A DNA stretch of 64,000 nucleotides from Dictyostelium discoideum. Lineage: Eukaryota. Position 1 is the stretch's first letter; the number at the start of each line of letters is the position of its first letter. The notes under the pieces are model-generated. The model saw only the letters and a list, made by a program, of their open reading frames with translations, did not search any database and was not told the origin of the DNA. Shown here one piece after another: positions 19,310 through 64,000 of this stretch. The translations under genes were made by a program, and so were the position numbers. The stretch is from contig CM000151.3 in assembly GCA_000004695.1 (NCBI GenBank), forward strand, positions 7,520,001 to 7,584,000, read 5' to 3'.

Positions 19310-19516
19310 AAACTATCTTAAATGAATTTAAAATAAAAATAGTTTTAAAATAAAACTTACCAATTGAAAACAAAGAAAAAAAAAAAAGTTTGGAAAAATG
19401 AAAAAGTAAAAAAGAAAAAGTAATCTATTTTTAAAAAAAGAAAATTTATATTAGAATTTGCTATTAAAATATAATTAAAATAAATTTAATTGATTCAATG
19501 CCATGTATAAATTTTT

Positions 19517-19589
19517 GTCAGACAATAAAAATAAGGAACAAAGTTTTTTGTCGTCATCGTGGTCGGTGTGAGCTGAGGAATACATCATT
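19517..19589 (-). ncRNA. Box C/D snoRNA candidate, copy 2 (core identical to copy 1, different flanks with a weaker terminal stem)
   Basis: A 73-nt core identical to copy 1 lies 280 bp away. The same C box (AUGAUGU) and D box (CUGA) are present. Confidence 0.5.
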
Positions 19590-19871
19590 GAATTATTTTT
19601 GTCTCTTTTTTTTTTTTTTTTTTTTTTCAAAAAACAAATAATAGCGATAATTATAAAACTTACCAAAATAACTCTTATGCAAAAAAGCGATCAGAAATGA
19701 AAATGAAAAAAAAAAAAAAAAAATTCTTTTTGAAAAAAAAAAAAAAATTTTTAAAAAAAAAAAGAAAATAAAAAAAATTCTTTTTAAAAAAAAAAAAAAA
19801 AAAAACGAGTGTTGAAATTATTGCCCGACCTTTTTCTAAAAAGTTTTAAAATTTTATAATTTTTATAATAA

Positions 19872-27274: not shown

Positions 27275-30200
27275 TTTCACTTCTATTTATTTTCACTTAC
27301 AAAATCCTTCATTTTGTTATTAATTTCAGATTTAACTTTTAATTCTTTTCTTTTTTTAATTATAAAATAGGTTGAAATAACAACAATTATAATTGCAAAT
27401 AGAACACAACCTATAATAATACCAGCTAGTTGGGTTGATGATATTGATGGTTCTTTATTTTTACAAATTGCATCTTCTTCATCTGAAACTGAATTATCAT
27501 CAACTAAAATTGAAAAATCTATGGATAGATAATTGAAAAAAATAATAAAATTAGTTGATTAATTTTTTTTTAATTTTTTTTTTTCTATTTAAAAAAAAGG
27601 TGGAAATAAATAAATTAATAATTACCAGGATCAATTATAACATTATCATTGAAATATGGAATTGTAATACCAATAAAAGATTGTAATTCATTTGGATTTG
27701 AAAGAGCATTTAAAGAAGAATCTAATAAAATATTATCAACACTTTTAACAAAAGTATCAACGATCGCTCTTCTAATGAATCTACCATATAGCGAGACATC
27801 ATCAACTTTAATTTTTAAATAATTTGAATTATCACCTGAACTAGTTTCACCATATTCTCTAAGTGAACAAACTTTATCATCATCTTGAGTGGTTGAAATT
27901 GAAGCTTCCATAACTAATTGTAAATTATGTAATGGATTTTCAAATTGATAACTTGAGATTGAAATTGTGAATTTAGTAGTGGATGGATTCATTGAAATGT
28001 TTTGATTAGCAAATTGAATGGTAGTTTCATTTTCAAACCATTGTAATACTGTAGCTATTTGAGTTTGTGTTGTTGTATTGCCATCCAATGATTTAACATT
28101 GATTGTTGTTGTGTATCTACTACTTGATGAATCAATTTTTGAATAACTCCATTTACCAAATTTAAAAGTTTTAATTGGTTTATTATTAATATCCATTTCT
28201 CTTAATGATGAAACTGCAATCAAAGTTTTAAAAAATACTGAATTTTCATTAAGTGAATTCGATGATGATGATGATGATTGTTGTTGTTGTTCAAAACTAA
28301 CTTGAATTTCTGAAGTTGGATAAGTTGTATTAAATTTTGGTTGATCCAATACGATTGTCTTTGATAAGCAATCTAATCCAGTATATGGTGAAAAACAAAC
28401 ACATCCATTAGATGTACAATATCCATTTTTAGGTGAACCACATAATGGTGTACCTTTACATTGTTGTGGTTGATTTGTTACTAATGGTGTTGTTGTTGGT
28501 AGTGATGGTGTTGGTGTAGTTTCATTGATTGGAGTTGTTGGTGATGGTGTTGTGGTTGGTGATTCACTACTTGTATTATTATTATCATTATTATTATTAT
28601 CATCATCATCATAATAATTAAAAATTATTGGTATTATTAAATATTCATTTGATTCAATACCATTTAAATCTATTAATTTTATAATAAAATTTTGATTTGT
28701 TTTTTTTATACCATCAAATAATAAAGCTGTTGAATAAGATTTAATTGGTGTTAAATGTTGTTGAGAGAAACCTATTAAATTTTCATCTAAATAATTTATT
28801 TTTAATGAAAGAGTTGAATGAAATTCTCTGCCAATAACCCAAAGTTCACCACCTTCAGATGTTATCTGACTTGATGATTCTATTGCTAAATATCTAGTGA
28901 AACCAATATCAACACCTGATGTTATGAAATGTCTAGAGATATAGTCTGATGAGAAACCACTAAAATGACCACCATTATTAATGAAACCATAAATTGAGAA
29001 ATATATAGTTGAAATATTAGCAAAGCTAATTGGAAATTCAATAGTTGATTTATATTTAACATTTGTATCATTCATAAAAACAATAGTTGGTATACTTTGA
29101 ATTGATTGCATTGGTGTAATACCATAAAGTGTTGGGAGTTGGTTTGGTTTTAAACCACTATCTAAATCTCTTGCTTCAAATAATATTGTAATAGTTTTTT
29201 GATTTTGTTGTGAGGATGATTTCTCAATTGAGAATGATAAAAGTTCAGGTGGTGTTAAATCGATATAGTCACCACAATCATATGAAAATTTAAATACATT
29301 TGGATTTGATAAATAATTTATAAATGGATTTGTAGTTGAATAATAACCACCATCTTTATTCCATTCTTGAAATACGGCTCTATTACCATGACTATCATAT
29401 AAAATAACATCACTAATTACATATGTTTGGTTAAAACATTTCAAATTATTACTCCTTATTAATAACGTATGTTCATATATACCAATCTTATTTGTACCAA
29501 ATACTCTATTAAATTCTGTTAATTGAAATTTATAAATTGAATTATCAACTTCTCCTCTTATTATAAAATCACCATGACTAAATCCATTAATTAAATCTTC
29601 AATTTCAAATATTACAATTAGTGAATGTGAAATATTCCTTTGTTGAATTGATGTAATAATTGGACCATATCCATCATAACCTAAAAAATAATAAATAAAT
29701 AATAGTTTTAGAAAATAAATAATTAAATAAATAAATAATTGAAAAAAACCTTACTTGTATTTAAAATTATTAATTGATTTTCTAAAGGAAAAAATGAATT
29801 ACTAATTTGTAAACTATTTTGATTACCATTTGTTAGGAACCAAGGAAGAATTCCACTCATTGAATTTGCATTTATAAAAAATTCAATTTGAAACATTTTA
29901 ATAGTTGAATTCCATTTAGAATAATAAAATTTATTATCTTTTAATGGTTCACCTGGAATATATGATGTTCTATCACTTAAATGTAATGCAAATGTTATTT
30001 GATTATTCGTTATTATATTTGAACCTGTATAATTGAAATACATTACATTTGCTCTTTTTTTATTTTTAACATTAATATTATTAAATAAAAATTTAATATT
30101 TCGAATATTTTGAATATCAATATCTAAAAATAAATAATCAATTAAAAATTAATAAACTATTAATTCAAGATTAAATTAAAAAATTAAAAAATAAATTAAA

Positions 30201-37710: not shown

Positions 37711-38988
37711 TTAAGAAGCTGATGTATAGAAATATCTTGTTCTATAGACATTTAAATAGTTAATTAAAATATCAATTAATGTTTTAAAGATATGAATCTT
37801 TTTCAAAAAGTTTAAAAATTTGTTTAATAAACCATCACCAATAAACTTTTCATAGAATGGTGATCTAATTAAATAGAAAAAAAGTAATTTCTTTCTTCTA
37901 TTCAATTCTTTGGCTTCCAATAAGGTTAATCGTATTTTCTGTTTAAAATTTCCATATTCTGAAAATGATTTGCTTAATAATTCAGTAACTAATGATAAAA
38001 ACCATGGTTTCCAAGACTTTTTACCAAATATACAATATGAAACCCCTAAAAAATTATTAAAATAAAATAAATTAGTATATATGTGTGTGTCTTTTTATTT
38101 ATTTTTTAAATAATACATACAATAAATAACAGGTCTAAATATAAATAAAATCTCACCAATAGTTTTTGTATTATAATCTTTTGGTGGTGGAGGTGGTAAT
38201 AATTTAATTAATGTTGATTCGTTTTGTTGTAATTCTCTCTGTTGTTGATATAATAAATTATTTTCTTGGTTTACAATTCGTTGTTGTTCAAATATTTGAT
38301 CTGATAATGTTCTTCTATTATTATTATTATTATTATTATTATTAAAATTATCATCGTTTGTATTATTATTATTATTAATATTATTATTATCATTATTATT
38401 AATATTATTATTATTATTTATTGACATTGTTACAGCTGGTCTTTTATTTTGGAATTGTTTTTGTTGATTTCGATTATTTTCAAGTATTGTTTTTACATCT
38501 TTTGAAGGTACATAAAATGAATGATGTACCAACATATCACCATTTGTTTTAATTAATAGTTTTAAACGTAAAATTGCTTTTAATAATTCAATTATAAATA
38601 TTATCATCTTTTTAATATTATTATTACTATTATTGTTATTACTATTACTATCGTCATGTTGTTCTCCTTTTTTTGTTGCTAACATTTCAAAGAATAATTC
38701 TAAACTTTGCACTGTTGTAATCCAACGTAAAGTTGTTAAATAATAGGGTGGTGGTACTTTTTCACCATTTGATATTTTATCGATATTATTTGATAATAGA
38801 ATTCCTGATGACCTATAATCTAAATATGATTGCAATATATTTGCTACACTATAAAGACCTTCACTAAACAATTCAGAATCACCATATCTACCTGGTAAAA
38901 ATGTAATTAATGATTTTAATAATCCCAAATGATCACTATTCTCTAATAAAAATATTAAAATATTTGATTTTGGTTGTTTTGGAATCAT
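37711..38988 (-). CDS. pex16: Peroxisomal membrane protein PEX16. Model is complement(join(37711..38045,38121..38988)), about 400 aa.
   Basis: The donor ...cct gtt att tat t|GTATGT and acceptor tttAG|gggtttc give phase 1. The junction restores ...IGEILFIFRPVIYWVSYCIFGKKSWKPWFLSLVTELLSKSF...RRKKLLFFYLIRSPFYEKF..., which matches human PEX16 IAEFLYIARPLLH...[21 protein letters not shown]...RRTILLLYYLLRSPFYDRF and the C-terminal ...YFY motif. Confidence 0.85.
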
Positions 38989-39691: not shown

Positions 39692-42546
39692 CAATCTGAT
39701 ACGTTGACTGTACAAACTGTACCAAATACAACGAATGTAACGAATACTGAGCATTCAATGTTAGCAGTATGTATATTTATCACCCCCTTTCCTTTCATTT
39801 TTTATTAATTTAATAATAACAATTATAAAATAAACTAATAAATAAAAATTATAGAAAATTGAAGAAAATAGACATATTATTCAAACTATATGGGAAAAAC
39901 AAAATTTAGGTAAATTAACAGAATGTGAACAATTTCAAAAAAGATTACATAGTAATCTTTTATTATTAGCTCCATTAGCTGATCACCAACAAAATTATCA
40001 TGTAAGTGAAAAAAAAAAAAAAAAAACAAAAAAAGCAAAGCAAAGAGTTATACTAACTATGATTTTAATCAATTATTAATGAATAGAAACAACAACAAGC
40101 ATTACTACAGCAACAACAGCAACAACAACAAGCATTACTACAACAACAGCAACAATCACCAGTTACAAATGTAGCAACCAATACACCACCAACTTTACAA
40201 CACTCAATTTCATCACCATCACCAAATAATTTTAACAATAATAATAATGCAAATAATCAATTCCTTTCACCTAATAGTCCTCAAGTTGCAAAATCATCAC
40301 CTTCTCAAAACAATCCATCAACACCAATTGCCAATACTCCAACAACAACAACAACAACAGCCGCAACAACAGCCACAAACACTAATACGATGATGAGTGG
40401 AAGTAGTGGCGGAGTGGTATCACCAGTTTCAAATCAGCAACAACAACAATCGATTCAGTCACCATCACAACAATCAGTTGTACAAAGATCACCATCACAA
40501 TCATTAAATTCATCAGCATCGTCAATTCAAAGTTTACAAAATATTCAAAATACTCAAAATACAATTCAACAATTAACAAACTCTCTAACACAAGTTAAAA
40601 CTATAATTCAACAATATCAATCACAAAATCAACAAGTACCACAAGATGTAATCTCTAGATATCATGAATTCTATTCAATGTTGCAACAACAACAACAAAA
40701 CCTATTACAACAACAATCTTTATTACAACAGCAACAAGCTTTATTACAACAACAACAAGTTGGAAACCCAATGCAACAAAGTAATGATATGCAACCACAA
40801 ACACCACAACAAAATAATATGCAACAACAACAACAACCACAAACACCACAACAAACAAATATGCAACAACCTCAAACTCCACAACAAAATAGTATGCAAC
40901 CATCTCAACAACCAATTACTCAACAAGAATATCAACAAATTTATGATAAAATAGTATCAATGAGTTCACAGATATTATTGTGTAATCAAAATATACAAAA
41001 ATTACAAAGTGAATCCTATGATCCACACGTTTTACAAGGATTACAAAATCAAGTTGCAAATTTAGAGATTGCTCAAGCAAATAGTCTTAGATTCTTACCT
41101 CAACAATATCATGTCGTACTATTCCAACAACAACAGCAACAACAAGCCAATCAACAACAATTACAATTAATGCAAATTAAACAATCAAAGGAATATATGG
41201 TTTTAACACCTGCTCAACAATTAATTTATAATCAACAAATTCAACAAAATCATTACAATCAACAAGTTATACTGAGACAACAACAACAAAAATTAATGGC
41301 AATATTGGAACAACAAAATCAAATGATAGCACAACAACAACAACAACAACATCAAATGCATCAACAACATCAAATGCAACCACAGCAACAACAACAACAA
41401 CATCAAATGCATCAACAATCACCACAACAACCACAACAAATGGGAATGGGAGGTAACCCACCATCACTTGAAATGATATCACCAATGTCTGCTGTAATGA
41501 ATGGTGTAACTAGTCCAATGAATCAAGGGATGATGAGTAGTAATAATGGTATGCCAACAATAACAACATCATTATCTGCAATTTCTCCAACCTCACCAAT
41601 TGGTACAAATTTAAATATGTCCAATCCAACTACAACCACAGTAGCAAATGTCACCACCACCGCAGCCACTACCACCACTGCTTCATCATCTGGTAAAGAG
41701 GAGAAAGAAAAGAAAAAAGATAAAAAAGATAAAGATAAAGATAAGGATAAGGATGATGATGATAAAGAATCTAAAAAAGATAAAAAAGATAAGAAGGATA
41801 AAAAAGCAAGTAAAGAGAAAACTTCGCATTGGACATCCGAAGAACATAATAAATTTTTAGAAGCAGTTCAACAATTTGGTATTAAAGATTACCATGCCAT
41901 AGCTAAATTTGTTCAAACTAGAAATCATCATCAAGTTAGAACTCATGTAAATACTTATTTAAAAAATCAAAAGAAAGCTGAAGCTGCAACATCTTCAACT
42001 CAAGTTAGTACTCCACAACAACAATTACCAATAGTTGGTACTCCACAACAATCTGTTGGTACTCCACAACAACAACAACCACCAATTGAACAAACACCAC
42101 CACCACCACAACAACAACAACAACCACCACAATTAACACCAGAACAACAATTAGCTTCACAACAACAACAAGCAACATTACAATTTCAACAATATCAACA
42201 ACCACAAGATCAACAACAGCAACAATATCAACAATATCAACAATATGATCCTCAACAACAACAACAACAACCACAACAACAACCTCCACCACCACAAACC
42301 ACTCCCCCAAATAATGAAAATAATAATAATATTAATAATAATTTAGAAAACACTAATAATAACGATAATGGTAACAATAATAATAATGAATATAATAGTG
42401 GATTTGATTCAAATAGTGGGTTGAATGACGAGATGGGAATAGGATTATTTGGATCACCTGGTAATAATAGCAATAATAATTTAGGAATTTCCATTGAAGG
42501 TAATAATTTTGATGACAATCCATCAATCTCTTCCCCAGGTGTATAA
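39689..42546 (+). CDS. Gln-rich transcription-coactivator-like protein with an N-terminal SS18/SYT SNH domain and a C-terminal Myb/SANT (SHAQKYF-class-like) domain. Model is join(39689..39766,39855..40001,40087..42546), about 894 aa.
   Basis: Exon 1 is MQSDTLTVQTVPNTTNVTNTEHSMLA|GTATGT. Exon 2 KIEENRHIIQTIWEKQNLGKLTECEQFQKRLHSNLLLLAPLADHQQNYH|GTAAGT matches the human SS18 SNH domain ENNHLIQCIMDSQNKGKTSECSQYQQMLHTNLVYLATIADSNQNMQ. Exon 3 is a poly-Q/PQ-rich region, a KD-rich linker, then SHWTSEEHNKFLEAVQQFGIKDYHAIAKFVQTRNHHQVRTHVNTYLKNQKK (Myb/SANT). All junctions are phase 0 and in frame. Confidence 0.7.
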
Positions 42547-44057: not shown

Positions 44058-45770
44058 ATGACACCCAGAATTGAAAGTGAGGAATCTGCTCCTCTAGTAA
44101 ATAAAAACAACAACAATAATAACGATAATAATAATAATAATAATGTTGATGAAGAAAACCCTTTAATAATAGAAAGTGGTATTCCAATTGAAGATTTAGA
44201 ACAAAAAAATAAACCATATTTAATTAAAGTACCAAATATTGATAAACCAGATTCTGTAAGTTTTTATTTTTCATTTTTTTTTTTTTTTTTTTTATTAATA
44301 ATAATAATAATAATAAAAATTATTTATTAATTTTTTATTTCTTTTTTTTTTTTAATTAAAAAAAAGAAATGGATAAATTTTAAAACATTATGGGCATTTA
44401 CAGGACCAGGATTTTTAATGAGTATAGCATATTTAGATCCTGGTAATTTAGAGAGTGATATTCAAGCAGGAGCAATGGCAGGATATCAATTACTTTGGGT
44501 ATTATTTTGGTCAACAGTTATTGGATTTTGGTTACAAATGTTAGCATCAAGATTGGGTGTTGTAACAGGTAAACATTTAGCTGAACATTGTAGAGAACAA
44601 TATCCAAAGACACCAAGGCTATTGTTATGGTTAATGACAGAGTTGGCCATTATAGGTAGTGATATTCAAGAGGTTATCGGTACTGCGATTGCCTTGCAAA
44701 TCTTATCGAATGGACATATACCATTATGGGCTGGTGTATTATTCACTGCAGCTGATACATTCACATTTTTATTTTTAGAGAAATATGGTATTAGAAAGTT
44801 GGAGGCATTCTTTTGCTCCTTGATTGCAATCATGGCCATTTCTTTTGGTGTAGAATACATCATTAGCAAGCCCGACCAAATTGAGGTGGTAAAAGGTGTA
44901 TTCATACCATTATGCTCACAGAACAACATTTCCCAAGCTGTGGGTATCTTGGGGGCAGTTGTAATGCCACATAATATCTACTTACATAGCGCTTTGGTAC
45001 AGTCAAGAGAAATCGATAGAAAGAGTGAAACTCAAGTAAAAATCGCAAATAAATACAATCGTTTAGAATCTGCATTCGCATTGATCATCTCTTTTATTAT
45101 TAATCTATTATTGGTATCAGTTTTCGCTAAAGGATTCTATGGAGAAACTACAGAGATTGGGTTATCATCGGCTGCTGATTTCCTTATGGACAAGTATGGT
45201 AAGGTTGCAAAATACATTTGGGCAATCGGTTTATTTAGTGCTGGTCAATGCTCGACTATGACAGGTACCTATAGTGGTCAATTTGTAATGGAAGGTTTCT
45301 TAAAATTAAAAATCGCACCTTGGAAAAGATTATTAATCACCCGTTGTACCGCTATCGTTCCTGCTATGGTTGTTGCTATATTATCGACTTCTCATTTGGA
45401 TTCTTTAGATCAATGGTTAAACATTTTGCAAAGTATTCAATTACCCTTTGCAGTGGTACCTGTATTATTATTTACAAGCTCTGAGAAAATTATGGGTTCA
45501 AAATTTAAAAATCATTGGTTAAATAATCAATTTGTTAGATTTTTATCACTATTAATCATTGCAATCAACATTTATTTAATTATCACTTTCTCAATGCAAA
45601 TCTCTGAATCAGCTTGGATGATTTCAATAGTTTCAATATCTTTCTTTTTTTATTTCATTTTCATAGTTTATTTATCAATGGGTCAAGAAAACTTTAATTC
45701 TATGACTAAAAAAATCAAAAATTTATTTAATAATAATTCAAATCAAACTTATAATAATATTAATTATTAA
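44058..45770 (+). CDS. nramp1: Nramp-family divalent-metal transporter. Model is join(44058..44255,44367..45770), 533 aa.
   Basis: The donor ...gat tct|GTAAGT and acceptor aaaaAG|aaatgg are phase 0. Exon 2 opens with the Nramp signature KWINFKTLWAFTGPGFLMSIAYLDPGNLESDIQAGA followed by 10-12 TM helices. The 533-aa length matches what I recall for Dictyostelium Nramp1. Confidence 0.75.
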
Positions 45771-47784: not shown

Positions 47785-48649
47785 TTAAAATATTTCTTGT
47801 TCTTGTGGTTTTTGTTGCTCTGAAGCTTGTTGTTGTTGTTCTTGTAATTTCTTTTGTTTAACATGTTCTGATAAAGTTGGAGAGAAATCCAATGGATTTA
47901 AAGTTTCACCACCTGCACAAACATAATATTCACCATCAATAATTTCTTCCATTGTCTTAACGAGTTTACCAGAAGAAGCTAAATATAATTTTCTGACTGG
48001 ACCAGTTGGTAATTTAACTTGTTTTGAGAGTTGTTCTTTTAATTGATCATAAGTTTTAAATTTGGTTGAATGTACAGTTACACGTTCACCAGAATGATAT
48101 CTATCACCATTTCTAAAACACATTATAACTTTAGCTTTCTCTGTCTGAACTGAAAATTTATCAATTGAATGAACTGCACTCTCTTTATATGCTGATACAA
48201 CTGGTTTTTTAGGTGATTGTGCACTTGAAACTGATGGTGATGCTGATAGTGTTGGTTGTGATGTTGTAGTGGTACCACTTGATGATGTTGGTGTTGGTGT
48301 TGGTGGTGGAGGTACACTACTAACAAATGGTTTACTTGGTTTTGGTTCATCATCTTGATCGCTAACTTCTGCTTTACCAAATATATCTTGAATACCTTTT
48401 GGTATTACCTCTGTATTTAATGGTTCTGCACCACAACAAATATAATGATGTCCATCAACAAAATCCTTTATATCTTGAATTCTTTTTTTATCCATTGAAT
48501 AAACTTTTTGTACATTTCCTGTAAATAATCCAACTTTTTTTGAAAATTCTAATTTTAACTAAATAAAAAAAAAAAAAAAAATAAATAAAAATAAATAAAA
48601 TTTCCAATTTTAAAAAAAAAAATTAGTAATTTTCATTTATTTTTACAAA

Positions 48650-49896: not shown

Positions 49897-50418
49897 TTAA
49901 ATTTTATTAATTTTACTGGCCATTACGGTAGGATTATCTTTGGCAAGTTGTTCTTTACCAGCGGATTTATAGTCGAAAGAGCAATCGTGCTTGTTAGAGT
50001 ATCTATGAGTGGAACAATATACAAAACTACAACGACACTTGAAACCTAATAAACCAACCTTTTTATTGCAACTAAAACATTTGGTGGTATCGGTTTGAAC
50101 TTTTTTAGTATCTTTTTCTTCTGTTGGTGGTTCTTCAACCTCTACAAGTTTAGCAGTTTCGACAACTGCGTTTGTTGCTTGTTGTTTATTTATTTCAATA
50201 TCTTTTTTGGTGATACTATTTGTGGTGGTTGAGGTGGTTGAAGTTGTATTTATATTACTAATGCTATTGTTGTCATTATTTGAGGTTGTTTCTTTTTTAG
50301 TTCTAAAACATTTCGAACACATATTCTCAGTAAGAGGATTACCGAAAAATCCACATCCTTTTGAACAAGGAGTTGGGGTATTTTGTTGTTGTGTAGTATT
50401 AGAGTCACCAGAATCCAT
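49897..50418 (-). CDS. A20-type plus AN1-type zinc-finger protein (ZFAND5/6 / stress-associated-protein-like), 173 aa, single exon
   Basis: N-terminal CSKGCGFFGNPLTENMCSKCF is an A20 zinc finger. C-terminal CFSCNKKVGLLGFKCRCSFVYCSTHRYSNKHDCSFDYK is an AN1 zinc finger. Confidence 0.85.
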   Translation of the reverse strand: MDSGDSNTTQQQNTPTPCSKGCGFFGNPLTENMCSKCFRTKKETTSNNDNNSISNINTTSTTSTTTNSITKKDIEINKQQATNAVVETAKLVEVEEPPTEEKDTKKVQTDTTKCFSCNKKVGLLGFKCRCSFVYCSTHRYSNKHDCSFDYKSAGKEQLAKDNPTVMASKINKI

Positions 50419-52014: not shown

Positions 52015-52575
52015 AATAAAAAAAATAAAAATTTTAAAAAAAAAAAAAAAAAAAAAAAAATAAAAATCGATATGAATGTCTTTTTAAAGGAAATCTTTCC
52101 AAACTAATTATAGTTTTTAAGATTATCCAATTTTTTTAATTTTTTAACTTGTGTTGGGTAATATGGAAAAATTAAAAATTAATTTAAAAAAAATTTTGTA
52201 AATTGTATATCTTTATTTTTCAATATCACAATATATTGAATTCTTTGAAATTTTTTATCATTATTTTTTTTTTTTAATTATTTTTGTTTTTCAGATTTCA
52301 TTTATTTTTCAACTGTTTTTCATTTATTTTTGCAATGATAATTAATGCAATTTAATTTAAAAAAATGGCAAAGATCCTTAAAATCTTTGTGTGGTGATCT
52401 AATTCCCATATCACTTAAAGAATAAAAATATTTTCAAAATGAAAAAAAAAATTAATATAAATAGATTTTTTTATTTTTTTTATTCATAATAAACATAAAC
52501 AAATAAACACTTAACATAAAGAAAAATATTACAAAATTAATAAATTAAAAAATTTATAAATAATAAAAATTAAAA

Positions 52576-53184
52576 ATGGCCACTCTTTTTGATATTTTAA
52601 ATACTCTTAATAATAATAATTATTTTGAAAATTGTAAAAGACAATGTTCAATAAATAAAAGCAATAAAACAATTATTGATATAATACCACCAATGGATGT
52701 AACAATGACAAATGATAAACTAATCATTGAAACAGAGTTAGCAGGTATTTCAAAAGATCATATTGAAATTGACATTAAAGATTCAATACTCACTATTCAA
52801 GGCGAAAAGAAAAAGAATTTAAATAAACAACAACAACAATTAGTTATTGAAAAATCAACAACATCATCAACAACATTAGATAGCAAAGAAGATGAAGCAT
52901 CAATTGAGGAGTTTGAAGATGATATTAAACCAAAATCAAAGTCTACAGTCACCACCACCGCCACTAAAGAGAATAAAGAAGATGAAAATAAAACAAAATT
53001 AAGTGATAAAAAGTTTATTTCAGAAAGATCATTTGGTAATTTTAAAAGATATTTAGATTTAACAAAAGTTTTATATCAATTAGATTTAAATTCAATCAAT
53101 ACTCAATTTGAAAATGGTTTATTAACAATTACAATCAATAAGAAATTACATTACTCAAATACAATTAAAATTAATATAAATTAA
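52576..53184 (+). CDS. Small heat-shock protein (alpha-crystallin/HSP20 domain), array copy 1, 202 aa
   Basis: [13 protein letters not shown]...[43 protein letters not shown]...[18 protein letters not shown]...[17 protein letters not shown] is a canonical alpha-crystallin-domain layout. It resembles the Dictyostelium hspG family. Confidence 0.8.
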
Positions 53185-53712
53185 CCATTGGTCACCTTTA
53201 TTTTCATTCTTTACAAATACATGTATAATATTAATAAATTATAATAAATTATTATTTCTTTAAAATTATTTAAATAAAAAACTTTAAAAAAGATAAATAA
53301 AAAATCATTTCCAGAAATTTTTTTAAATTTTTTTTTTTATTTAAAACTTGATTTATATTTTTTTTATTTTATTTTTATTAAAAGAGAAATTAAAAATTAA
53401 AACATGTGGATTAAATGTTGGTTTATTAAATTTACCTTCAATAAAAATGATAGATAATTTTTTAAAAAAAAAAAAAAATAAAAAAAAAATTCAAAAGATA
53501 TAAATATCTCAAGTTATAATAAAATATTTTGTTCACTTGAAAATAATAGGCAATTATTTTTTTATAAAAAAAATAGAAATAAAATACTTTTAATTATTTA
53601 AATTCAAAACTTTTTATTATTTTTTAAAGAATTCTCTTTTTTATTTTATAATTATTATGGAAATTATTTTTTTTTTTGCCCTCATAAAAAATTAGAATCA
53701 CCAATCCAACTT

Positions 53713-53755
<43 letters not shown>

Positions 53756-54079
53756 TAAATTTTCATTTATATTTCAATTGTTTTTCATTTATTTTCACAA
53801 AGTTGTTCAGTGGAAGTTAAGTTATAAAATAACAATGATTCATAAAATCTTCGTGTAAAAAAATTTTTCATGTAATTTCCTTGTCATGGGGATTCATAAC
53901 TTTAAGGAGTAAAAAAAAAAAAAAAAAAAAAAATAAATAGTTTAAAAAACTTTTTTTTTTTTTCATTAAAACAAAAACAAAAATAAAAATTAAATTAAAT
54001 AAATAATAAATAAATAAACAAATAAAAAATCAAACAAATATATAAAAAAATAAAAAAATAAAAAAATAAAAAATTAAAA

Positions 54080-54712
54080 ATGGCAACAATCTTTGATATT
54101 TTAAATACTCTTAATAATAATAATAATAATAATAATTTTGAAAATTGTAAAAGACAATGTCCAATTAATAAAAGCAATAAAACGATTATTGATAAACTAC
54201 CACCAATGGATGTAACAATGACAAATGATAAATTAATCATTGAAACAGAGTTAGCAGGTATTTCAAAAGATCATATTGAAATTGATATTAAAGATTCAAT
54301 ACTCACTATTCAAGGTGAAAAGAAAAAGAATTTAAATAAACAACAACAACAATTAGTTATTGAAAAATCAACATCATCATCAACATTAGATAGCAAAGAA
54401 GATGAGCCATCGATTGAAGAGTTTGAAGATGATATTAAACCAAAATCAAAATCTGACAATACAACTGTATCTACTACAACCACCGCCACCACTAAAGAGA
54501 ACAAAGAAGATGAAAATAAAACAAAATCAACTGATAAAAAGTTTATTTCAGAAAGATCATTTGGTAATTTTAAAAGATATTTAGATTTAACAAAAATTTT
54601 ATATCAATTAGATTTAAATTCAATCAATACTCAATTTGAAAATGGTTTATTAACAATTACAATCAATAAGAAATTACATTATTCAAATACAATTAAAATT
54701 AATATAAATTAA
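54080..54712 (+). CDS. Small heat-shock protein (alpha-crystallin domain), array copy 2, 210 aa
   Basis: More than 90% identical to copy 1 by eye. It differs in the poly-N and S/T linker lengths. Confidence 0.8.
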
Positions 54713-54904
54713 CTCCACTTTTATTTTCCCTTCTTTATAATTCTGAAAGTACATGTACATAATAGTAATAGTAATAATAATATTTTAATAATAAAATTAA
54801 TAAAATAAAAAAAAATAAAAAAACATTTAATTTAATTTTTCTTCTTCTTTTTCTTTTTTTTTTTTATTTAATATTTAATTTTTAATATTAATTGTATTTT
54901 TTGA

Positions 54905-55150
54905 TACTATCATTGCCCAAAATATTTCATTTATCGAAAATTCTATTTATATCTATTAAATATGCATCAGATTTTGATAAAGGAACAATATTATCATCAT
55001 TTGATATTATTGAATTTAATTTAGAAATTATTTTGTAATTAATTAATTAATATTATCAATTTTAAGAAATAATATATATATTTTTAAATAATTAATTATT
55101 ACATTTCATTTAAAAAATGATGATTTATAATCACCTCATTTAAATTTATT
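54905..55150 (-). pseudogene. Deleted remnant of the GNAT-like gene (3' part of exon 1 and 5' part of exon 2)
   Basis: 'cattgcccaaaatatttcatttatcgaaaattctatttatatctattaaatatgcatcagattttgataaaggaacaatattatcatcatttgat...' and '...ttacatttcatttaaaaaatgatgatttataatcacctcatttaaattt' match segments of the 56790-57904 gene. The remainder is missing. Confidence 0.6.
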
Positions 55151-55436
55151 TATTTTATTTTATTTTATTTTTATTTTTTTTAAAATCTATTTTTTATATG
55201 AAATATTATCCCTCTTGTTCTTTAAAATAAAAAAAAAAAAAATTATTAAAAATGATTATAAATAATTAAATTCTAAAAATAAAATTTTGGTAAAAAAAAA
55301 AAAAAAAAAAATTCAGAAAACAGAATTATCACATTCATTTTTTTATATTTTATATCATTTTGTGTATTTTTGAGTGTTCTATTGTTATATACTAAATTCA
55401 TAATAAAAATAAATAAAAATAAATAATTGTTTGAAA

Positions 55437-55467
<31 letters not shown>

Positions 55468-55594
55468 TTTATTAAGGACATTCCAATTGTTTTTTATCCA
55501 TAAAAAATTATTGGTCAGAATAATAAAAAGTTTATATTCCCACCATTATGAGGTATTCAAGTTTTAAAACCTAACTTAATTTTCTTTTTTTATT

Positions 55595-55637
<43 letters not shown>

Positions 55638-55966
55638 TTTTTTTTTTTTAAAATTTTCATTAAATTTTCATTTATTTTCTAATTGTTTTTCTTTTACTTT
55701 CACAATGTTTTTCAGTGGAAGTTAAGTTATAAAATAACAATGATTCATAAAATGTTCGTGTAAAATAATTTTTTGAGAATAACTTCCATGTAATGGTGAT
55801 TCATAACTTTAAGAATAAAAATATTTTTCAAAATGAAAAAAAAAAAATAATATAAATAGTTTAAAAACCTTTCTTTTTTTCTTCATTAAAACAAAAACAA
55901 ATAAAACAAAAACAAATAAAAATTAAATAAATAAATAAATAAATATAAAAAAAAAAACTTTTAAAA

Positions 55967-56590
55967 ATGGCAACAATCTTTGATATTTTAAATACTCTTA
56001 ATAATAATAATTTTGAAAATTGTAAAAGACAATGTTCAACCAATAAAAGCAATAAAACAATTATTGATATACTACCACCAATGGATGTAACAATGACAAA
56101 TGATAAACTAATCATTGAAACAGAGTTAGCAGGTATTTCAAAAGATCAAATTGAAATTGACATTAAAGATTCAATACTCACCATTCAAGGTGAAAAGAAA
56201 AAGAATTTAAATAAACAACAACAACAATTAGTTATTGAAAAATCATCAACATCACCATCATCATCAACATTAGATAGCAAAGAAAACGGACCATCAATTG
56301 AAGAGTTTGAAGATGATATTAAGCCAAAATCAACCACCAGTACTACAACTGTATCTACAGCCACCACCACAAAAGAGAATAAAGAAGATGAAAATAAAAC
56401 AAAATCAAGTGATAAAAAGTTTATTTCAGAAAGATCATTTGGTAATTTTAAAAGATATTTAGATTTAACAAAAGTTTTATATCAATTAGATTTAAATTCA
56501 ATCAATACTCAATTTGAAAATGGTTTATTAACAATTACAATCAATAAGAAATTACATTACTCAAATACAATTAAAATTAATATAAATTAA
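55967..56590 (+). CDS. Small heat-shock protein (alpha-crystallin domain), array copy 3, 207 aa
   Basis: Same family as copies 1 and 2. A conserved upstream block with TATAAATAG lies about 115 bp 5' of the ATG. Confidence 0.8.
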
Positions 56591-56789
56591 CCAGTGGTCA
56601 CCTTCTTTATAATTCTGAAAATACATGTACATAATAAATAATAAATAGTAATAAATAATAATAATAATAATAAAATAAATACTTTTTTTGTAAATTGTTT
56701 AAAATATTTAATTTTAATTTTTTTTTTTTTTTTTTTATTTATTTATTTTTTTTTTTTTTTTTGTTTTATTTAATATTTAATATATAAAG

Positions 56790-57421
56790 TTAATTTTTAT
56801 TTTTTGAAATAATCATAGTTGTTACAGAATAGGAATATTTAAAACCTAATTTTTCAACGAGAGAATTTGATATTGTATTATCATACACAGTTGAACATAA
56901 AGGTATAATATTATTTTCAATTGATGATAATGTTAATTTTGCTTTAACTTTTAATGCAATACCTTTACATCTAAATTCTGGCAATGTGTATAAATTTGAT
57001 GATTTTCCATCAGATTTAATATAATTCCAACAAACTAAATTATTACTATTATTAATTTTCTTTTCGTCATTTTCATCAACTATTATATTGACTTTATTAT
57101 TACTAGTAGTTTTATAACCAAATGCTAAACCATTTTCAATTGCCCAAAATATTTCATTTATTGAAAATTCCGTTTTATATCTATAATTGTCATTTATAAA
57201 ATATGCATCTGATTTTGATAAAGGAACAATATTATTATCATTTGAAATTATTGAATTTAATTTAGAAATTATTTTGATTTTATTTTCCATATCATTAATA
57301 TCTATAATAAAATGATTATAAAAAGGAACTGTTTTAATTTTAAATCCACATTCTTGGAAAAATTCTTCAATGAATTTAACTAAAATTGGATTTTCAATAT
57401 CTCCAAAATAAAAAGTATTAC

Positions 57422-57455
<34 letters not shown>

Positions 57456-57904
57456 AAGAGAATTAATAAATATAAAAATACAATAGTTATCTATTTTTAG
57501 AAATAATATACATATATTGTTAATAATTATTACATTTCATTTGAAAAATGATGATTTAAAATTGCATCATTTAAATTTGTTTTTTTTAATAGTTCCTCCA
57601 TTTCAATAGCATTTATACTATTGAAATATCCTTTTTCCCAATCAATTGATTTAATTACATTTTTAACGATTTCAAAATCTAAATTTTCATTATTTAATGT
57701 AAATAATTTTATAAAATTTGTAATTAATGATATTGATACTATTACACTCGGTGAATCATAATTATCTGTAAAATATTCATATAATCCAATTTTAGTTTGG
57801 TTTTCAATAAAATCAAATTGAGGAAATCCTTTTGTTTTTTTGAAAAAACTTTTGTCTTTTATGTGTATTAGTATTGATTTTTTATTATTTTCTTTTATTA
57901 ACAT
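56790..57904 (-). CDS. GNAT-fold acyl/acetyltransferase-like protein, two exons, unit A, intact. Model is complement(join(56790..57420,57534..57904)), about 333 aa.
   Basis: Exon 1 MLIKENNKKSILIHIKDKSFFKKTKGFPQFDF...NHHFSNE ends at|GTAATA. The acceptor is tatAG|t, phase 2. Exon 2 is ...GDIENPILVKFIEEFFQECGFKIKTVPFYNHF...VCWNYIKSDGKSSNLYTLPEFRCKGIALKVKAKLTLSSIENNIIPLCSTVYDNTISNSLVEKLGFKY..., which carries the GNAT motif-A pattern (R-x-x-G-x-A ... EKLGF). Confidence 0.6.
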
Positions 57905-58372
57905 TTTTATTTATTTTTTAAAAACTACATAAACCCTCTAAATAATAATAATAAAAAAAAAAAAAAAAAAAAAAACAAATTTAAAAAAAAAATAAACAAA
58001 TAAAAAAAAAAAACAAATAAATTAAAAAAAAAAAAAAAAATTTAAAAAAAAAAAAAAGTAAAAGTGTGTTGAATAATTTCTTTTTTAATTTCATGATAAA
58101 CAGTTATTACTATTCAATTTATTTAAATACATGTTTGTTATAATTATTTTTTTAATTGTTTTCTAAAAATTATATTACACTTCAAACACAACAAAAATTA
58201 TGTTGAGAAAAGTAGGTGGATGCGGACATGACCGCTTCTGTTTAATTAAAAAAATTATTATTATATTATTATTATTTTCTAAAAATTTTATATTTTATAT
58301 GATTTTGTGTATTTTTGAGTGTTCTATTGTAATTAACTAAATTCATAATAAAAATAAATAAAATTAAATATT

Positions 58373-58411
<39 letters not shown>

Positions 58412-58925
58412 TTAAGTAATTATTAAGGACAATCCAATTGTTTTTTATCCATAAAAAATTATTGGTCAGAGTAATAAAAAAAGTTTATATTCCCATTATC
58501 ATGAGATATTCAAGTTTTACAACCTTATTTTCCTTTTTTTATTTCATTTTTTTTTTTTTTTTATTTTTTTTAAAAATTTCATTAAATTTTCATTTATTTT
58601 CTAATTGTTTTTCATTTACTTTCACAATGTTTTTCAGTGGAAGTTAAGTTATAAAATGACAATGATTCATAAAATGTTTGTGTAAAATAAATTTTGAGAA
58701 TAACTTCCATGTAATGGTGATTCATAACTTTAAGAATAAAAATATTTTCAAAATGAAAAAAAAAAAAATAATATAAATAGTTTAAAAATCTTTCTTTTTT
58801 CTTCATTAAAACAAAAACAAAAACAAATAAAAATTAAATAAATAAATAAGTAAATAAATAAATAAATTAAATAGTAACTAAATTAATTATTATTAAATAA
58901 ATATATAAAAAAAAAACTTTTAAAA

Positions 58926-59561
58926 ATGGCAACAATCTTTGATATTTTAAATACTCTTAATAATAATAATAATAATAATTTTGAAAATTGTAAAAGACAA
59001 TGCTCAACCAATAAAAGCAATAAGACAATTATTGATATACTACCACCAATGGATGTAACAATGACAAATGATAAACTAATCATTGAAACAGAGTTAGCAG
59101 GTATTTCAAAAGATCATATTGAAATTGACATTAAAGATTCAATACTCACTATTCAAGGTGAAAAGAAAAAGAATTTAAATAAACAACAACAACAATTAGT
59201 TATTGAAAAATCATCAACATCACCATCATCATCAACATTAGATAGCAAAGAAGATGAACCATCAATTGAAGAGTTTGAAGATGATATTAAACCAAAATCA
59301 ACCACCAGTACTACAACTGTATCTACTACCACCACCGCCACTAAAGAGAATAAAGAAGATGAAAATAAAACAAAACCAACTGATAAAAAGTTTATTTCAG
59401 AAAGATCATTTGGTAATTTTAAAAGATATTTAGATTTAACAAAAGTTTTATATCAATTAGATTTAAATTCAATCAATACTCAATTTGAAAATGGTTTATT
59501 AACAATTACAATCAATAAGAAATTACATTATCCAAATCCAATTAAAATTAATATAAATTAA
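58926..59561 (+). CDS. Small heat-shock protein (alpha-crystallin domain), array copy 4, 211 aa
   Basis: Same family. The C-terminus reads ...[13 protein letters not shown], with two substitutions relative to the other copies. Confidence 0.8.
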
Positions 59562-59759
59562 CCAGTGGTCGCCTTCTTTATAATTGCGAAAATACATGTA
59601 CATAATAAATAATAAATAATAATAAATAATAATAAAAAAAAAAAAAAAAAAAAAAAATAATAAATACTTCTTTGTAAATTCTTTTAATAAAAAAAAAAAA
59701 AAATATTTAATTTTATTTTTATTTTTAATTTTTTTTTTTTTTTTTGTTTTATTTTATAT

Positions 59760-60877
59760 TTAATATATAAAGTTAATTTTATTTTTTGAAATAATCATTG
59801 TTGTTACAGAATAGGAATATTTAAAACCTAATTTTTCAATAAGAGAATTTGATGGTGTATTATCATATGCTACCGAACATAAAGGTATAATATTATTTTC
59901 AATTGATGATAATGTTAATTTTGCTTTAACTTTTAATAATACCTTTACATCTAAACTCTGGTAATGTGTGTAAATTTGATGATTTTCCATCAGATTTAAT
60001 ATAATTCCAGCAAACTAAATTATTACTATTATTAATTTTCTTTTCTTCATTTTCGTCAACAACTATATTGACTCCATTATTATTTTTATTATTATTATTA
60101 TTATCATTATTAATTTTATAACCAAATGCTAAACCATTTTCAATTGCCCAAAATATTTCATTTATTGAAAATTCTGTTTTATATTTATAATTGTCATTTA
60201 TAAAATATGCATCTGATTTTGATAAAGGAACAATATTATCATCATTTGAAATTATTGAATTTAATTTAGAAATTATTTTGATTTTATTATCTATATCATT
60301 AATATCAATAATAAAATGATTATAAAAAGGAACTGTTTTTATTTCAAACCCACATTCATGGAAATATTCTTCAATGAATTTTACTAATATTGGGTTTTCA
60401 ATATCTCCAAAATAAAAAGTGTCTCTAAAAAAAAAAAAAAATAATTCATAGAATTAATAAATATAAAAATACAATAGTTATCTATTTTGTGTTAATAATA
60501 ATTACATTTCATTTGAAAAATGATGATTTAAAATCGCATTTATTTGATTTGTCTTTTTTAATAGTTCATCCATTTCAATAGAATTCATACTATTGAAATA
60601 TCATTTTTTCCAATCAATTGATTTAATTACATTTTTAACGATTTCAAAATCTAAATTTTCATTATTTAATGTAAATAATTTTATAAAATTTGTAATTAAT
60701 GATATTGATACTATTACACTTGGTGAATCATAATTATCTGTAAAAAATTCATATAATCCAATTTTAATTTGGTTTTCAAATAATATCAAATTGAGGAAAT
60801 CCTTTTGTTTTTTTGAAAAAACTTTTGTCTTTTATATGTATTAATATTGATTTTTTATTATTTTCTTTTACTAACAT
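59760..60877 (-). pseudogene. GNAT-like gene, unit B, pseudogenised
   Basis: Relative to unit A, exon 2 has a 2-nt deletion ('aatgcaatacc' has become 'aataatacc'), which shifts the frame. Exon 1 has a nonsense change ('gattgggaaaaagga' has become 'gattggaaaaaatga', W-K-K-stop). The ORF track shows only 76-aa and 62-aa pieces here. Confidence 0.7.
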
Positions 60878-61348
60878 ATTTATTTATTTATAAGCTCAAA
60901 AACCCACTAAATAATAACACCAAAAAAAAAAAAATAAAAAATAAATTAAAAAAAAAAATAAACAAATAAAAAAAAAAAAATTAAAAAAAAAAAAAAAGTA
61001 AAAGTGTGTTCTATAATTTCTTTTTTAATTTCATGAAAACAGTAAATACTGTTCAATTTATTTAAATACATATTTGTTATAATTATTTTTAAATTGTTTT
61101 CTAAAAATTTTATTAAACTATTTTTTTTTTAAATCTATTTTTTAATATAAAATGTATTCCCTTTAATTATTCTTCAAAATAAAAAAAATAATTATAAAAA
61201 ATGAATGATTCTAACTTAAAAAAAAAAAAAAAAAAAAAAAAACAGAATGATTAAATTCAATTTTTTTATATTTTATAAGACCTTGTGTAATCTGGAGCGT
61301 TCTATGTTTATATACTAAATTCATATTAAAAATAAATAAAATTAAATC

Positions 61349-61380
<32 letters not shown>

Positions 61381-61913
61381 TTAAAGTGTCAAATTAAATA
61401 TTTATCAAGGATGTATCACTTTTTTTTTATCATAAAAAATTATTGAAGAGTTATAAAAAAAGTTCATATTCCCATTATGAGGGATTCAAGTTTTAAAGTT
61501 ATAAGAAAAGTTTATATTCCCATTATGAGGTATTCAAGTTTTACATAACCCATTTTCCTATTTAATTTTTTTTTTTTTTTTAAAAAATTTCATTTATTTT
61601 TCAATTATTTTTCATTTATTTTCACAATGTTTTTCAGTGGAAGTTAAGTTATAAAATAATAATTATTCATAAAATGTTCGTGTAAAATAATTTTTTGCGA
61701 ATGACTTCCATGTAATGGTGATTCACAATTTTAGGAATAAAAATATTTTCAAAATGAAAAAAAAATAATATAAATAGTTTAAAAATCTTTCTTTTTTTAA
61801 AACAAAAACAAAAACAAAAACAAAAACAAAAACAAAAACAAAAACAAATAAAAAAGTAAACAAAAAATAAAATTAATTATTATTAAATAAATAAAAAAAA
61901 AAAAATTTTAAAA

Positions 61914-62519
61914 ATGGCAACAATCTTTGATATTTTAAATACTCTTAATAATAATAATTTTAAAAATTGTAAAAGACAATGTCCAATTAATAAAAGCAAT
62001 AAAACAATTATTGATATAATACCATCAATGGATGTAACAATGACAAATGATAAACTAATCATTGAAACAGAGTTAGCAGGTATTTCAAAAGATGATATTG
62101 AAATTGACATTAAAGATTCAATACTCACTATTCAAGGTGAAAAGAAAAAGAATTTAAATAAACAACAACAACAATTAGTTAGTGAAAAATCATCAACATC
62201 ACCATCAACATTAGATAGCAAAGAAGATGAACCATCAATTGAAGAGTTTGAAGATGACATTAAACCAAAATCAGCCACCAGTACTACAACCACCACCACT
62301 AAAGAGAACAAAGATGATGAAAATAAAACAAAATCAAGTGATAAAAAGTTTATTTCAGAAAGATCATTTGGTAATTTTAAAAGATATTTAGATTTAACAA
62401 AAGTTTTATATCAATTAGATTTAAATTCAATCAATACTCAATTTGAAAATGGTTTATTAACAATTACAATCAATAAGAAATTACATTACTCAAATACAAT
62501 TAAAATTAATATAAATTAA
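61914..62519 (+). CDS. Small heat-shock protein (alpha-crystallin domain), array copy 5, 201 aa
   Basis: Same family. Confidence 0.8.
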
Positions 62520-62701
62520 CCAGTGGTCACCTTTATTTTCCTATTCTTTACAATTCTGAAAATACATGTACATAATAAATAATAATATATTTAATAAAAA
62601 ATAATAAATACTTTTTTGTAAATACTTTAAAATAAAAAAAAAAGCATTTAATTTAACATTTCTTTTTTCCTTTTTTTTATTGTTTTATTTATTTAATATT
62701 A

Positions 62702-63828
62702 TTATTCAAAATTAATTTTATTTTTTGATATTACCATTACTGCCATAGAATAGGAATATTTAAAACCTAATTTTTCAATAAGAGAAATTGAATTTATATT
62801 ATCATGTGATGTTGAACATAATGGTATAATATTATTTTCAATTGATGATAATGTTAATTTTGCTTTTACTTTTAATGCAACACCTTTACATCTAAATTCT
62901 GGTAACGTGTATAAATTTGATGATTTTCCATCAGATTTAATAAAATTCCAACAAACTAAATCATTACTATTTTTAACTTTCTTTTCTTTTTCATCATTTT
63001 CATCAAAAACTATATTGACTTTATTATTATTTTTATTTTTATTATTATAATTATTATTATTATTATAATTATTAATTTTATAACCAAATGCTAAACCATT
63101 TTCAATTGCCCAAAATATTTCATTTATTGAAAATTCCGTTTTATATTTATAATTGTCATTTATAAAATATGCATCAGATTTTGATAAAGGAACAATATTA
63201 TTATCATTTGAAATTATTGAATTTAATTTAGAAATTATTTTGATTTTATTATCTATATTATTGATATCAATAATATAATGATTAAAAGGAAATGTTTTAA
63301 CTTCAAATCCACATTCTTGGAAATATTTTTCAATGAATTTAACTAAAATTGGATTTTCAATATCTCCAAAATAAAAAGTATTACTAAATAAATAAATTAA
63401 AAAAGGAAAAAAGAAATTATTAGTTTTGAAATAATATGTATAAAAATTAATTATTACATTTCATTTGAAAAATGATGATTTAAAATTGCATCATTTAAAT
63501 TTGTTTTTTTTAATAGTTCCTCCATTTCAATAGCATTAAAACTATTGAAATATCCTTCTTTCCAATCAATTGATTTAATTACATTTTTAACGATTTCAAA
63601 ATCTAAATTTTCATTATTTAATGTAAATAATTTTATAAAATTTGTAATTAATGATATTGATACTATTACACTCGGTGAATCATAATTATCTGTAAAAAAT
63701 TCATATAATCCAATTTTAATTTGATTTTCAATAAAATCAAATTGAGGAAATCCTTTTGTTTTTTTGAAAAAACTTTTATCTTTTATATGTATTAATATTG
63801 ATTTTTTATTATTTTCTTTTAATAACAT
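62702..63828 (-). CDS. GNAT-like gene, unit C, apparently intact. Model is complement(join(62702..63383,63458..63828)), about 350 aa.
   Basis: Hand translation of exon 2 stays in frame with unit A and has two in-frame N-rich insertions (+9 nt, +39 nt). Exon 2 is missing from the ORF track only because it contains no ATG/GTG/TTG until near its end. Splice signals are conserved (|GTAATA ... tttAG|). Confidence 0.5.
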
Positions 63829-64000
63829 ATTTATTTTATTTATTTATTTATTTATTTATTTATTAATTTATTTTTATTTATTTGTTAATTAATAGGGATA
63901 AAATTAAAAATGAAAATAATATTTTTTTTTAATAAATTACTCTATAAAAAATCAACCTTAAATTTAAATGATAACCAATGTTTTTTAAATTAATATAAAA

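Follow-up and report, generated by a model that had tools for sequence, protein, structure and literature searches.

Small heat-shock genes of the hspG5-hspG11 array of Dictyostelium discoideum are interleaved with genes for a predicted GLYAT/FR47-fold acyltransferase

Clustered small heat-shock protein (sHSP) genes are familiar from the divergent hsp-16 pairs of C. elegans and from the Drosophila 67B cluster, in which block-duplicated units lie head to head across a short shared control region. According to the literature, the HspG proteins of Dictyostelium discoideum belong to the heat-shock regulon and are stress-regulated holdases that need no ATP. Heat induces HSPG1 and HSPG2 (PMC6584373), cln5- cells show a joint drop of hspG5-8 and of hsp70, DnaJ, and ubiquitin genes (PMC9686302), and hspG5-11 all drop upon exposure to M. 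marinum (PMC7078664). Here, we analyzed a 64-kb stretch of D. discoideum AX4 chromosome 2 (contig CM000151.3, positions 7,520,001 to 7,584,000; hereafter, the window). Its 52.5-64 kb region, with products matching exactly, is part of the annotated hspG5-hspG11 tandem array, in which the sHSP genes alternate with genes encoding a GNAT-type protein. We favor, with a probability of about 0.6, the reading that in this annotated array the linkage of GNAT and sHSP genes is ancestral, that the unit of both has been amplified, that selection retains both gene types, that the GNAT protein is an N-acyltransferase, and that one GNAT copy is co-induced with hspG genes.

With 15-32% GC per 2-kb segment, the window is very rich in AT, and its array portion, the proximal five-sevenths of hspG5-hspG11, contains five sHSP genes, three minus-strand two-exon GNAT genes, and one GNAT remnant (Table 1). 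Self-BLAST revealed direct repeats of 2.6-2.7 kb with 86-89% identity and a period of ~2.92-2.98 kb (55601-58181 versus 58525-61119, 88.6% over 2674 columns; 58286-60891 versus 61264-63843, 85.9%). The tandem array is thus real, far beyond chance. A first-pass annotation made from the sequence alone had noted that the array runs off the window end. Indeed, in a second D. discoideum assembly (L004), 99.5% identical to window positions 52660-64000, the array continues with hspG10, a fourth GNAT gene whose product is exactly DDB_G0276957, and hspG11; it ends ~5 kb beyond the window end and is followed by a ComC-like gene. Window and L004 together give seven sHSP genes, four GNAT genes, and one remnant. 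The reference genome already has annotations for all genes of the region, and the literature already names the hspG family. In the papers retrieved by hspG gene names or GNAT gene IDs, we found no discussion of the interleaving with a GLYAT-fold acyltransferase; the GNAT gene IDs occurred in a single paper of the retrieved literature, as a table entry only.

The first-pass annotation had recognized five paralogous alpha-crystallin sHSP genes and suggested a comparison with the dictyBase hspG family, which identifies them as hspG5-hspG9 by open reading frame, Pfam HSP20 domain, and exact match. All five score above the HSP20 (PF00011) cut-off of 20.8 bits (49.8-54.5 bits), and in each a low-complexity Q/S/T/E/K-rich insert divides the match into two stretches. 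Their mutual identity is 92-94% over aligned columns, close to the ~90% first judged by eye, and the differences are concentrated, as also described then, in the N-terminal poly-N run and the S/T-rich linker. The I/V-x-I/V motif at the C-terminus of sHSPs is an anchoring motif; every copy ends in ...IKININ and so contains it, as I-K-I and I-N-I. No further sHSP copy exists in the 64-kb window outside 52.5-64 kb. Beyond the window, hspG10 (L004 7947-8588, minus strand) may be a pseudogene, because it carries an in-frame TAA at codon 75, which its 194-aa gene model in L004 skips.

Each GNAT gene lies tail to tail with the preceding sHSP gene, with ~200 bp between the stops, and head to head with the next one at about 1.02-1.04 kb; from ATG to ATG, the distance is 1021 bp between GNAT A and hspG8 and 1036 bp between GNAT B and hspG9. 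The divergent orientation first assigned to the pair applies to the next sHSP gene, but with the sHSP gene of its own unit the GNAT gene is convergent. The motif EFRCKGIA...EKLGFKY is found in the GNAT-like genes. Copy A (exon 1, 57904-57534; GT..AG intron, 57533-57421; exon 2, 57420-56790) is intact, as previously judged, and a 1-nt insertion in an A-run near 56795 only shortens its C-terminus to ...SKNKN, where the other GNAT copies read ...SKNKINF(E). Copy C (exon 1, 63828-63458; exon 2, 63383-62702) is likewise intact and carries the N-rich in-frame insertions already reported for it, as seen in the alignment of the copies.

Copy B bears three lesions: a +1-nt insertion near 60780, a GGA-to-TGA change at 60603-60601 that turns Gly92 into a stop, and a 2-nt deletion at 59938/59937 that falls within, and destroys, the coenzyme A (CoA)-binding motif A. 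The 2-nt frameshift had been noticed earlier and the insertion had been missed; the supposed W-to-stop change is rejected, because the Trp, which precedes the stop by two codons, is unchanged. The annotated 224-aa model of DDB_G0277121 begins at an internal Met past the stop and splices round the 2-nt deletion. Judged by its lesions, copy B is effectively a pseudogene. The deleted remnant previously spotted after the second sHSP copy proved to be a 146-bp piece from the middle of exon 2, with GNAT A residues 173-218 matching 55034-54911 in tblastn and 54912-55056 aligning with 63105-63261 in blastn.

In D. citrinum (L002), one GNAT gene stands amid seven HSP20 genes, which adjoin the same zf-A20/AN1 gene that flanks hspG5, and in D. 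dimigraforme (L001), one GNAT gene stands amid four to five HSP20 genes. The strand arrangement of GNAT and sHSP genes in both species is that of the window, with head-to-head intergenic lengths of 640 bp and 652 bp, respectively. Each of these species holds one in-array GNAT gene, so the two gene types were linked before the unit was amplified in D. discoideum. In another D. discoideum strain (L005), the same flanking genes enclose only five sHSP and three GNAT genes, and the composition is different again in a D. cf. discoideum strain (L006). By the Nei-Gojobori method, the GNAT paralogs within D. discoideum show a synonymous divergence (dS) of 0.11-0.15 and a nonsynonymous-to-synonymous ratio (dN/dS) of 0.37-0.50; the corresponding values between species are 0.45-0.57 and 0.27-0.37. 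For the sHSP genes, dS is 0.06-0.15 with dN/dS of about 0.35 among D. discoideum paralogs, and about 0.32 with dN/dS of 0.28 between D. discoideum and D. citrinum. The similar dS of the two sets of paralogs, together with the self-BLAST repeats, bears out the co-duplication in a ~3-kb unit that the first-pass annotation had put forward. Intact copies of both gene types are under purifying selection, and the ~2.95-kb unit appears to have been amplified within D. discoideum, unless its copies were homogenized by concerted evolution.

According to our preferred reading, a single GLYAT/FR47-fold GNAT gene was present inside an sHSP array, next to a zf-A20/AN1 gene, before D. discoideum, D. citrinum, and D. 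dimigraforme diverged. In D. discoideum, unequal crossing-over then amplified the ~2.95-kb unit of one sHSP and one GNAT gene. Turnover is continuing, as is apparent from one dead GNAT copy, one remnant, the hspG10 stop, and a copy number that depends on the strain; the birth-and-death process suggested earlier is thereby confirmed. Both gene types are kept by purifying selection, each GNAT gene being transcribed away from the next sHSP gene over a shared ~1-kb intergenic region. At least one GNAT copy (DDB_G0276957) would be co-induced with hspG genes, and the in-window copies A and C would perhaps be weakly expressed or silent.

One might instead suppose that all GNAT copies are non-functional relics and that the sHSP genes alone matter, as the dead copy B, the remnant, and the C-terminal frameshift of copy A could suggest. 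This is extremely improbable, given the intact open reading frames and splice sites in copies A and C, in DDB_G0276957, and in D. citrinum and D. dimigraforme, and given the dN/dS values of 0.27-0.50. Moreover, motif A and ~40% of residues are invariant across nine aligned full-length homologs (drawn from D. discoideum, D. cf. discoideum, D. citrinum, and D. dimigraforme).

The assignment of the protein to the GNAT superfamily, at first based on a motif, is now confirmed by Pfam and agrees with the predicted fold. GNAT A scores 31.7 bits against FR47 (PF08445; gathering threshold, 22.1) and 29.2 bits against GNAT_acetyltran (PF12746; gathering threshold, 26); in the same scan, Gly_acyl_tr_C (PF08444) stayed below threshold (17.8 versus 27 bits) and Gly_acyl_tr_N (PF06021) gave no match. 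The CoA pyrophosphate-binding motif A (R/Q-x-x-G-x-G/A) reads R274-C-K-G277-I-A279 in copies A and C and in DDB_G0276957, and R274 and G277 are nearly invariant among 14 dictyostelid homologs. A word-indexed search returned close relatives only, in the four species or strain groups of the nine-homolog alignment. An exhaustive HMMER search yielded full-length homologs of ~300 aa with 22-42% identity in D. dimigraforme, D. cf. discoideum, D. citrinum, D. discoideum (DDB_G0295741), D. firmibasis, Tieghemostelium lacteum, and Cavenderia fasciculata, as well as rotifer relatives. By these homologs, the family is spread across Dictyostelia. The 42%-identical paralog of D. dimigraforme sits at an unrelated housekeeping locus. 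The annotation of the T. lacteum homolog KYQ88987.1 (405 aa) joins it to an OsmC-like 'osmotically inducible' domain; this may be a genuine fusion related to stress or the result of merging gene models.

AlphaFold prediction from the nine close homologs alone was unusable (predicted local distance difference test, pLDDT, of 38.8). With an alignment of 14 sequences including the distant dictyostelid homologs, AlphaFold 2 gave a confident model (pLDDT 85.3; predicted template-modeling score, pTM, 0.84). Foldseek against the PDB matched this model over its full length to bovine glycine N-acyltransferase (GLYAT; 7pk1, E 1.7e-12; template-modeling (TM) score 0.62 query-normalized and 0.71 target-normalized) and to Drosophila CG14615 (1sqh; TM 0.72), followed by other tandem-GNAT enzymes; nearly all the PDB matches listed belong to the GNAT superfamily, N-myristoyltransferases included. 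A profile search of PDB sequences found 1sqh, 3ec4, 7pk0, and 7b3a. The whole protein is thus confidently modeled as a two-lobed GLYAT/FR47-type fold. Since the Foldseek matches span the whole chain, the ~120-aa N-terminal region, which the first-pass annotation could not place, is on this model the first, non-catalytic GNAT-like lobe. The protein belongs to the FR47-like family of the GNAT superfamily and is predicted to be an acyl-CoA-dependent N-acyltransferase.

GLYAT works through a catalytic dyad, Glu226-His263, and a glycine-binding Arg228 (PMC12509317). In a profile alignment, the positions corresponding to Glu226, His263, and Arg228 are occupied by Lys263, Ser300, and Ser265, although at such low identity (~11%) a small register error is possible. 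The family has Tyr/Phe at the position of the GLYAT His, with an invariant Asp261 nearby. An identity as glycine N-acyltransferase was thus rejected: the fold fits, whereas the Glu-His dyad and Arg228 are not kept and the Pfam GLYAT domains are not matched. For the same reasons, the acceptor is probably not glycine.

The sHSP side of the intergenic region carries a conserved promoter block, made up of four to five TTTTCA motifs at ~10-11-bp spacing, several short G/C-containing boxes, and TATAAATAG. The block is kept upstream of most aligned sHSP copies of D. discoideum, D. citrinum, and D. dimigraforme, a few of them being degenerate or partly deleted. It does not represent a canonical heat-shock element (HSE) and is confined to the sHSP side; GAAnnTTC dimers in the shared intergenic region are not conserved. 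The DDB_G0276957 ATG (L004 6589, outside the window) is preceded, at a distance of ~150-200 bp, by a CACCC-rich box, CCCACACCACCCCACCCCCC, which is absent upstream of GNAT copies A and B and resembles the G-box/CAE-type promoter elements of Dictyostelium. An isolated GC-rich island with a GCGG...CCGC inverted repeat (58204-58245) occurs between GNAT A and hspG8, in this unit only, at a junction between homology blocks.

DDB_G0276957, just outside the window, is the sole GNAT copy in the differential-expression lists searched. In the dnmA knock-out, it is up (baseMean 13.5, log2 fold change 2.8), as are hspG1, hspG2, hspG4, hspG11, and hspG12, and the values of its head-to-head neighbor hspG11 (15.9 and 3.0) are close to its own (PMC12405889). 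In QS9 amoebae with P. hayleyella, it rises from 4.5/3.4/3.9 to 14.9/17.3/87.5 (PMC12008035, supplement). Both its replicate pattern and its magnitude are those of hspG1, hspG3-9, and hspG12, and its induced level, at about 40, equals theirs; its reference neighbors hspG10 and hspG11 are not in that list. Since its level matches that of the hspG genes, simple read-through is less likely. The co-regulated stress cassette of the first-pass annotation is partly and indirectly supported, in that DDB_G0276957 tracks hspG genes in two RNA-seq datasets; the in-window copies are in no list searched. Support for co-regulation of sHSP and GNAT genes is thus only suggestive, and concerns a copy outside the window. 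We found no heat-shock RNA-seq study of Dictyostelium in the literature searched. DDB_G0276589, numbered next to hspG4 (DDB_G0276587), goes from 2.1/2.7/4.1 to 16.1/12.8/65.5 with an hspG-like replicate pattern (PMC12008035, supplement 3); a second unannotated hspG-adjacent gene may thus be co-regulated.

Several points weigh against our preferred reading. The enzymatic activity is deduced from the fold and motif A only, the GLYAT catalytic residues not being conserved, and the continuation of the array was taken from the L004 assembly and not from AX4 itself. The 64-kb window contains no perfect canonical HSE trimer, nGAAnnTTCnnGAAn; the array region has only six one-mismatch HSE sites, which are not conserved; and footprinting with four paralogs and two species detected no conserved block on the GNAT-proximal upstream side, findings that also speak against a stress cassette. 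The in-window copies DDB_G0277117 and DDB_G0276955 are in none of the differential-expression lists searched, those of PMC7078664 included, where hspG5-11 all drop, and GNAT gene IDs were not found in the supplements of PMC7078664, PMC9686302, and PMC12405889. The words 'strand' and 'stranded' were not found in the main text of PMC12405889 and PMC12008035. As the GNAT and sHSP tails are only ~200 bp apart, antisense read-through could add to the GNAT counts. Furthermore, the array of the wild strain QS9 may differ from that of AX4, so that the assignment of reads to DDB_G0276957 is uncertain.

The promoter findings, the absence of copies A and C from those lists, the close convergent tails, and the unreported library strandedness would all suit a GNAT gene that is a pure passenger, amplified by its chance position and without any link to the sHSPs, its co-variation being due to read-through, antisense transcription, or paralog mis-assignment. 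The death of copy B and the reduction of another copy to a remnant would likewise mark the extra copies as dispensable, and the dN/dS among paralogs (0.37-0.50) is relaxed compared with that between species. Nevertheless, we regard this explanation as unlikely. A passenger would hardly have retained its linkage and opposite-strand arrangement in three species at dS ~0.5. Besides, typical read-through would not lift the DDB_G0276957 signal to the level of the hspG genes, neither hspG10 nor hspG11 is in the PMC12008035 list, and in the dnmA knock-out DDB_G0276957 matches its divergent neighbor hspG11, not just the convergent one.

At the other extreme, a GLYAT-fold acyltransferase that belongs to the heat-shock regulon, shares a promoter region with an HspG gene, and acylates sHSPs, their clients, or a stress metabolite is improbable; if true, it would be a eukaryotic two-gene stress module of chaperone and acyltransferase, amplified as a unit. 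A dedicated partnership, in which sHSPs and enzyme form a true two-component stress module and the enzyme acts on HspG proteins, clients, or a stress metabolite (acylation of N-termini or lysines might, for instance, tune HspG oligomer dynamics), is even harder to credit. The conserved linkage and the co-expression of one GNAT copy with hspG genes would be expected of it, and the Tieghemostelium fusion hints at stress associations of the wider family. However, that fusion is perhaps a gene-model artifact, direct evidence for any substrate is lacking, and other paralogs of the family reside at unrelated housekeeping loci. Furthermore, to judge from their gene numbers, hspG1-4 and hspG12 are located elsewhere, and no other homolog of the hsp-linked subfamily turned up in D. 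discoideum.

Our preferred reading makes this locus of a model organism a clean, well-dated case in which genes were amplified in tandem and undergo birth-and-death turnover. The strain polymorphism of the array matters for the mapping of RNA-seq reads and for the design of hspG knock-outs. Of wider interest is that the gene for a GLYAT-fold acyltransferase has kept its place inside a heat-shock array and shows a hint of co-expression; such co-expression, if real, would be the first functional handle on a dictyostelid-wide enzyme family. Apart from this lead, nothing at the locus challenges current understanding.

Table 1. Array genes, promoter blocks, and neighboring genes in the window (positions in the 64-kb stretch)
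Feature	Position	Strand	Description
hspG5 (DDB_G0276875)	52576..53184	+	202-aa sHSP; exact match UniProt Q8MPA7; Pfam HSP20 49.8 bits
hspG6 (DDB_G0276949)	54080..54712	+	210-aa sHSP; open reading frame, Pfam HSP20, exact match
hspG7 (DDB_G0276951)	55967..56590	+	207-aa sHSP; open reading frame, Pfam HSP20, exact match
hspG8 (DDB_G0277119)	58926..59561	+	211-aa sHSP; open reading frame, Pfam HSP20, exact match
hspG9 (DDB_G0276953)	61914..62519	+	201-aa sHSP; open reading frame, Pfam HSP20, exact match
GNAT copy A (DDB_G0277117)	56790..57904	-	333 aa, intact; spliced product 100% identical to annotated protein
GNAT copy B (DDB_G0277121)	59760..60877	-	disabled by three lesions; annotated 224 aa
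GNAT copy C (DDB_G0276955)	62702..63828	-	350 aa, intact; spliced product identical to annotated protein
GNAT remnant (middle of exon 2)	54911..55056	-	146 bp, after hspG6; tblastn and blastn
Conserved sHSP promoter block upstream of hspG8	58588..58780	+	TTTTCA repeats through to TATAAATAG
Equivalent sHSP promoter blocks	52296-52464, 53761-~53960, 55666-55859, 61588-61777		upstream sequence alignment
Doublecortin-domain (DCX) gene	47785-48495	-	syntenic with array in other species
Nramp gene	44418-45770	+	ordinary neighbor
Myb gene	40390-42546	+	ordinary neighbor
Pex16 gene	38095-38988	-	ordinary neighbor
ComC-like gene	27615-29444	-	ordinary neighbor

Directly upstream of hspG5 lies a zf-A20 and zf-AN1 'stress-associated protein'-type gene (49897-50418, minus strand), which also flanks the array in D. 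citrinum, in the D. discoideum strain L005, and in D. cf. discoideum. An HSP90-family open reading frame of 711 aa (21980-24115, plus strand; HATPase_c and HSP90 domains, TRAP1-like) is found ~30 kb upstream of the array; its presence there is probably coincidental. Two tandem copies of the C/D-box snoRNA DdR11 (19236-19311 and 19516-19591, minus strand; Rfam RF01561, 106-107 bits) and a tRNA-Pro(UGG) (4451-4521, plus strand; by ARAGORN and Rfam) occur further upstream, and the Rfam and tRNA scans gave nothing within 52-64 kb.

Among the known systems, the D. discoideum hspG family (hspG1-hspG12, Hsp20/alpha-crystallin) does not differ from the sHSP genes of the window, which are its members hspG5-hspG9 themselves. 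The closest relatives in structure of the GNAT protein are GLYAT (7PK0/7PK1) and the FR47-like CG14615 (1SQH), with which it shares a length of ~300 aa, two GNAT-like lobes, a full-length structural match (TM 0.71-0.72), and the P-loop R-x-x-G-x-A, at a sequence identity of only about 11%; in contrast to GLYAT, it has Lys263, Ser300, and Ser265 in place of the Glu226-His263 dyad and Arg228. PamZ (7B3A) and other tandem-GNAT small-molecule acetyltransferases have the two-lobed GNAT architecture in common with it (profile match, E 2.4e-5), but the structural match is much weaker (TM 0.43-0.50), and PamZ, unlike the window protein, is a bacterial self-resistance enzyme. In comparison with the hsp-16 pairs of C. 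elegans and the Drosophila 67B cluster, the shared region in the Dictyostelium array is one in which no canonical HSE was found, and whereas the partner of an sHSP gene there is a second sHSP gene, here it is a predicted acyltransferase gene.

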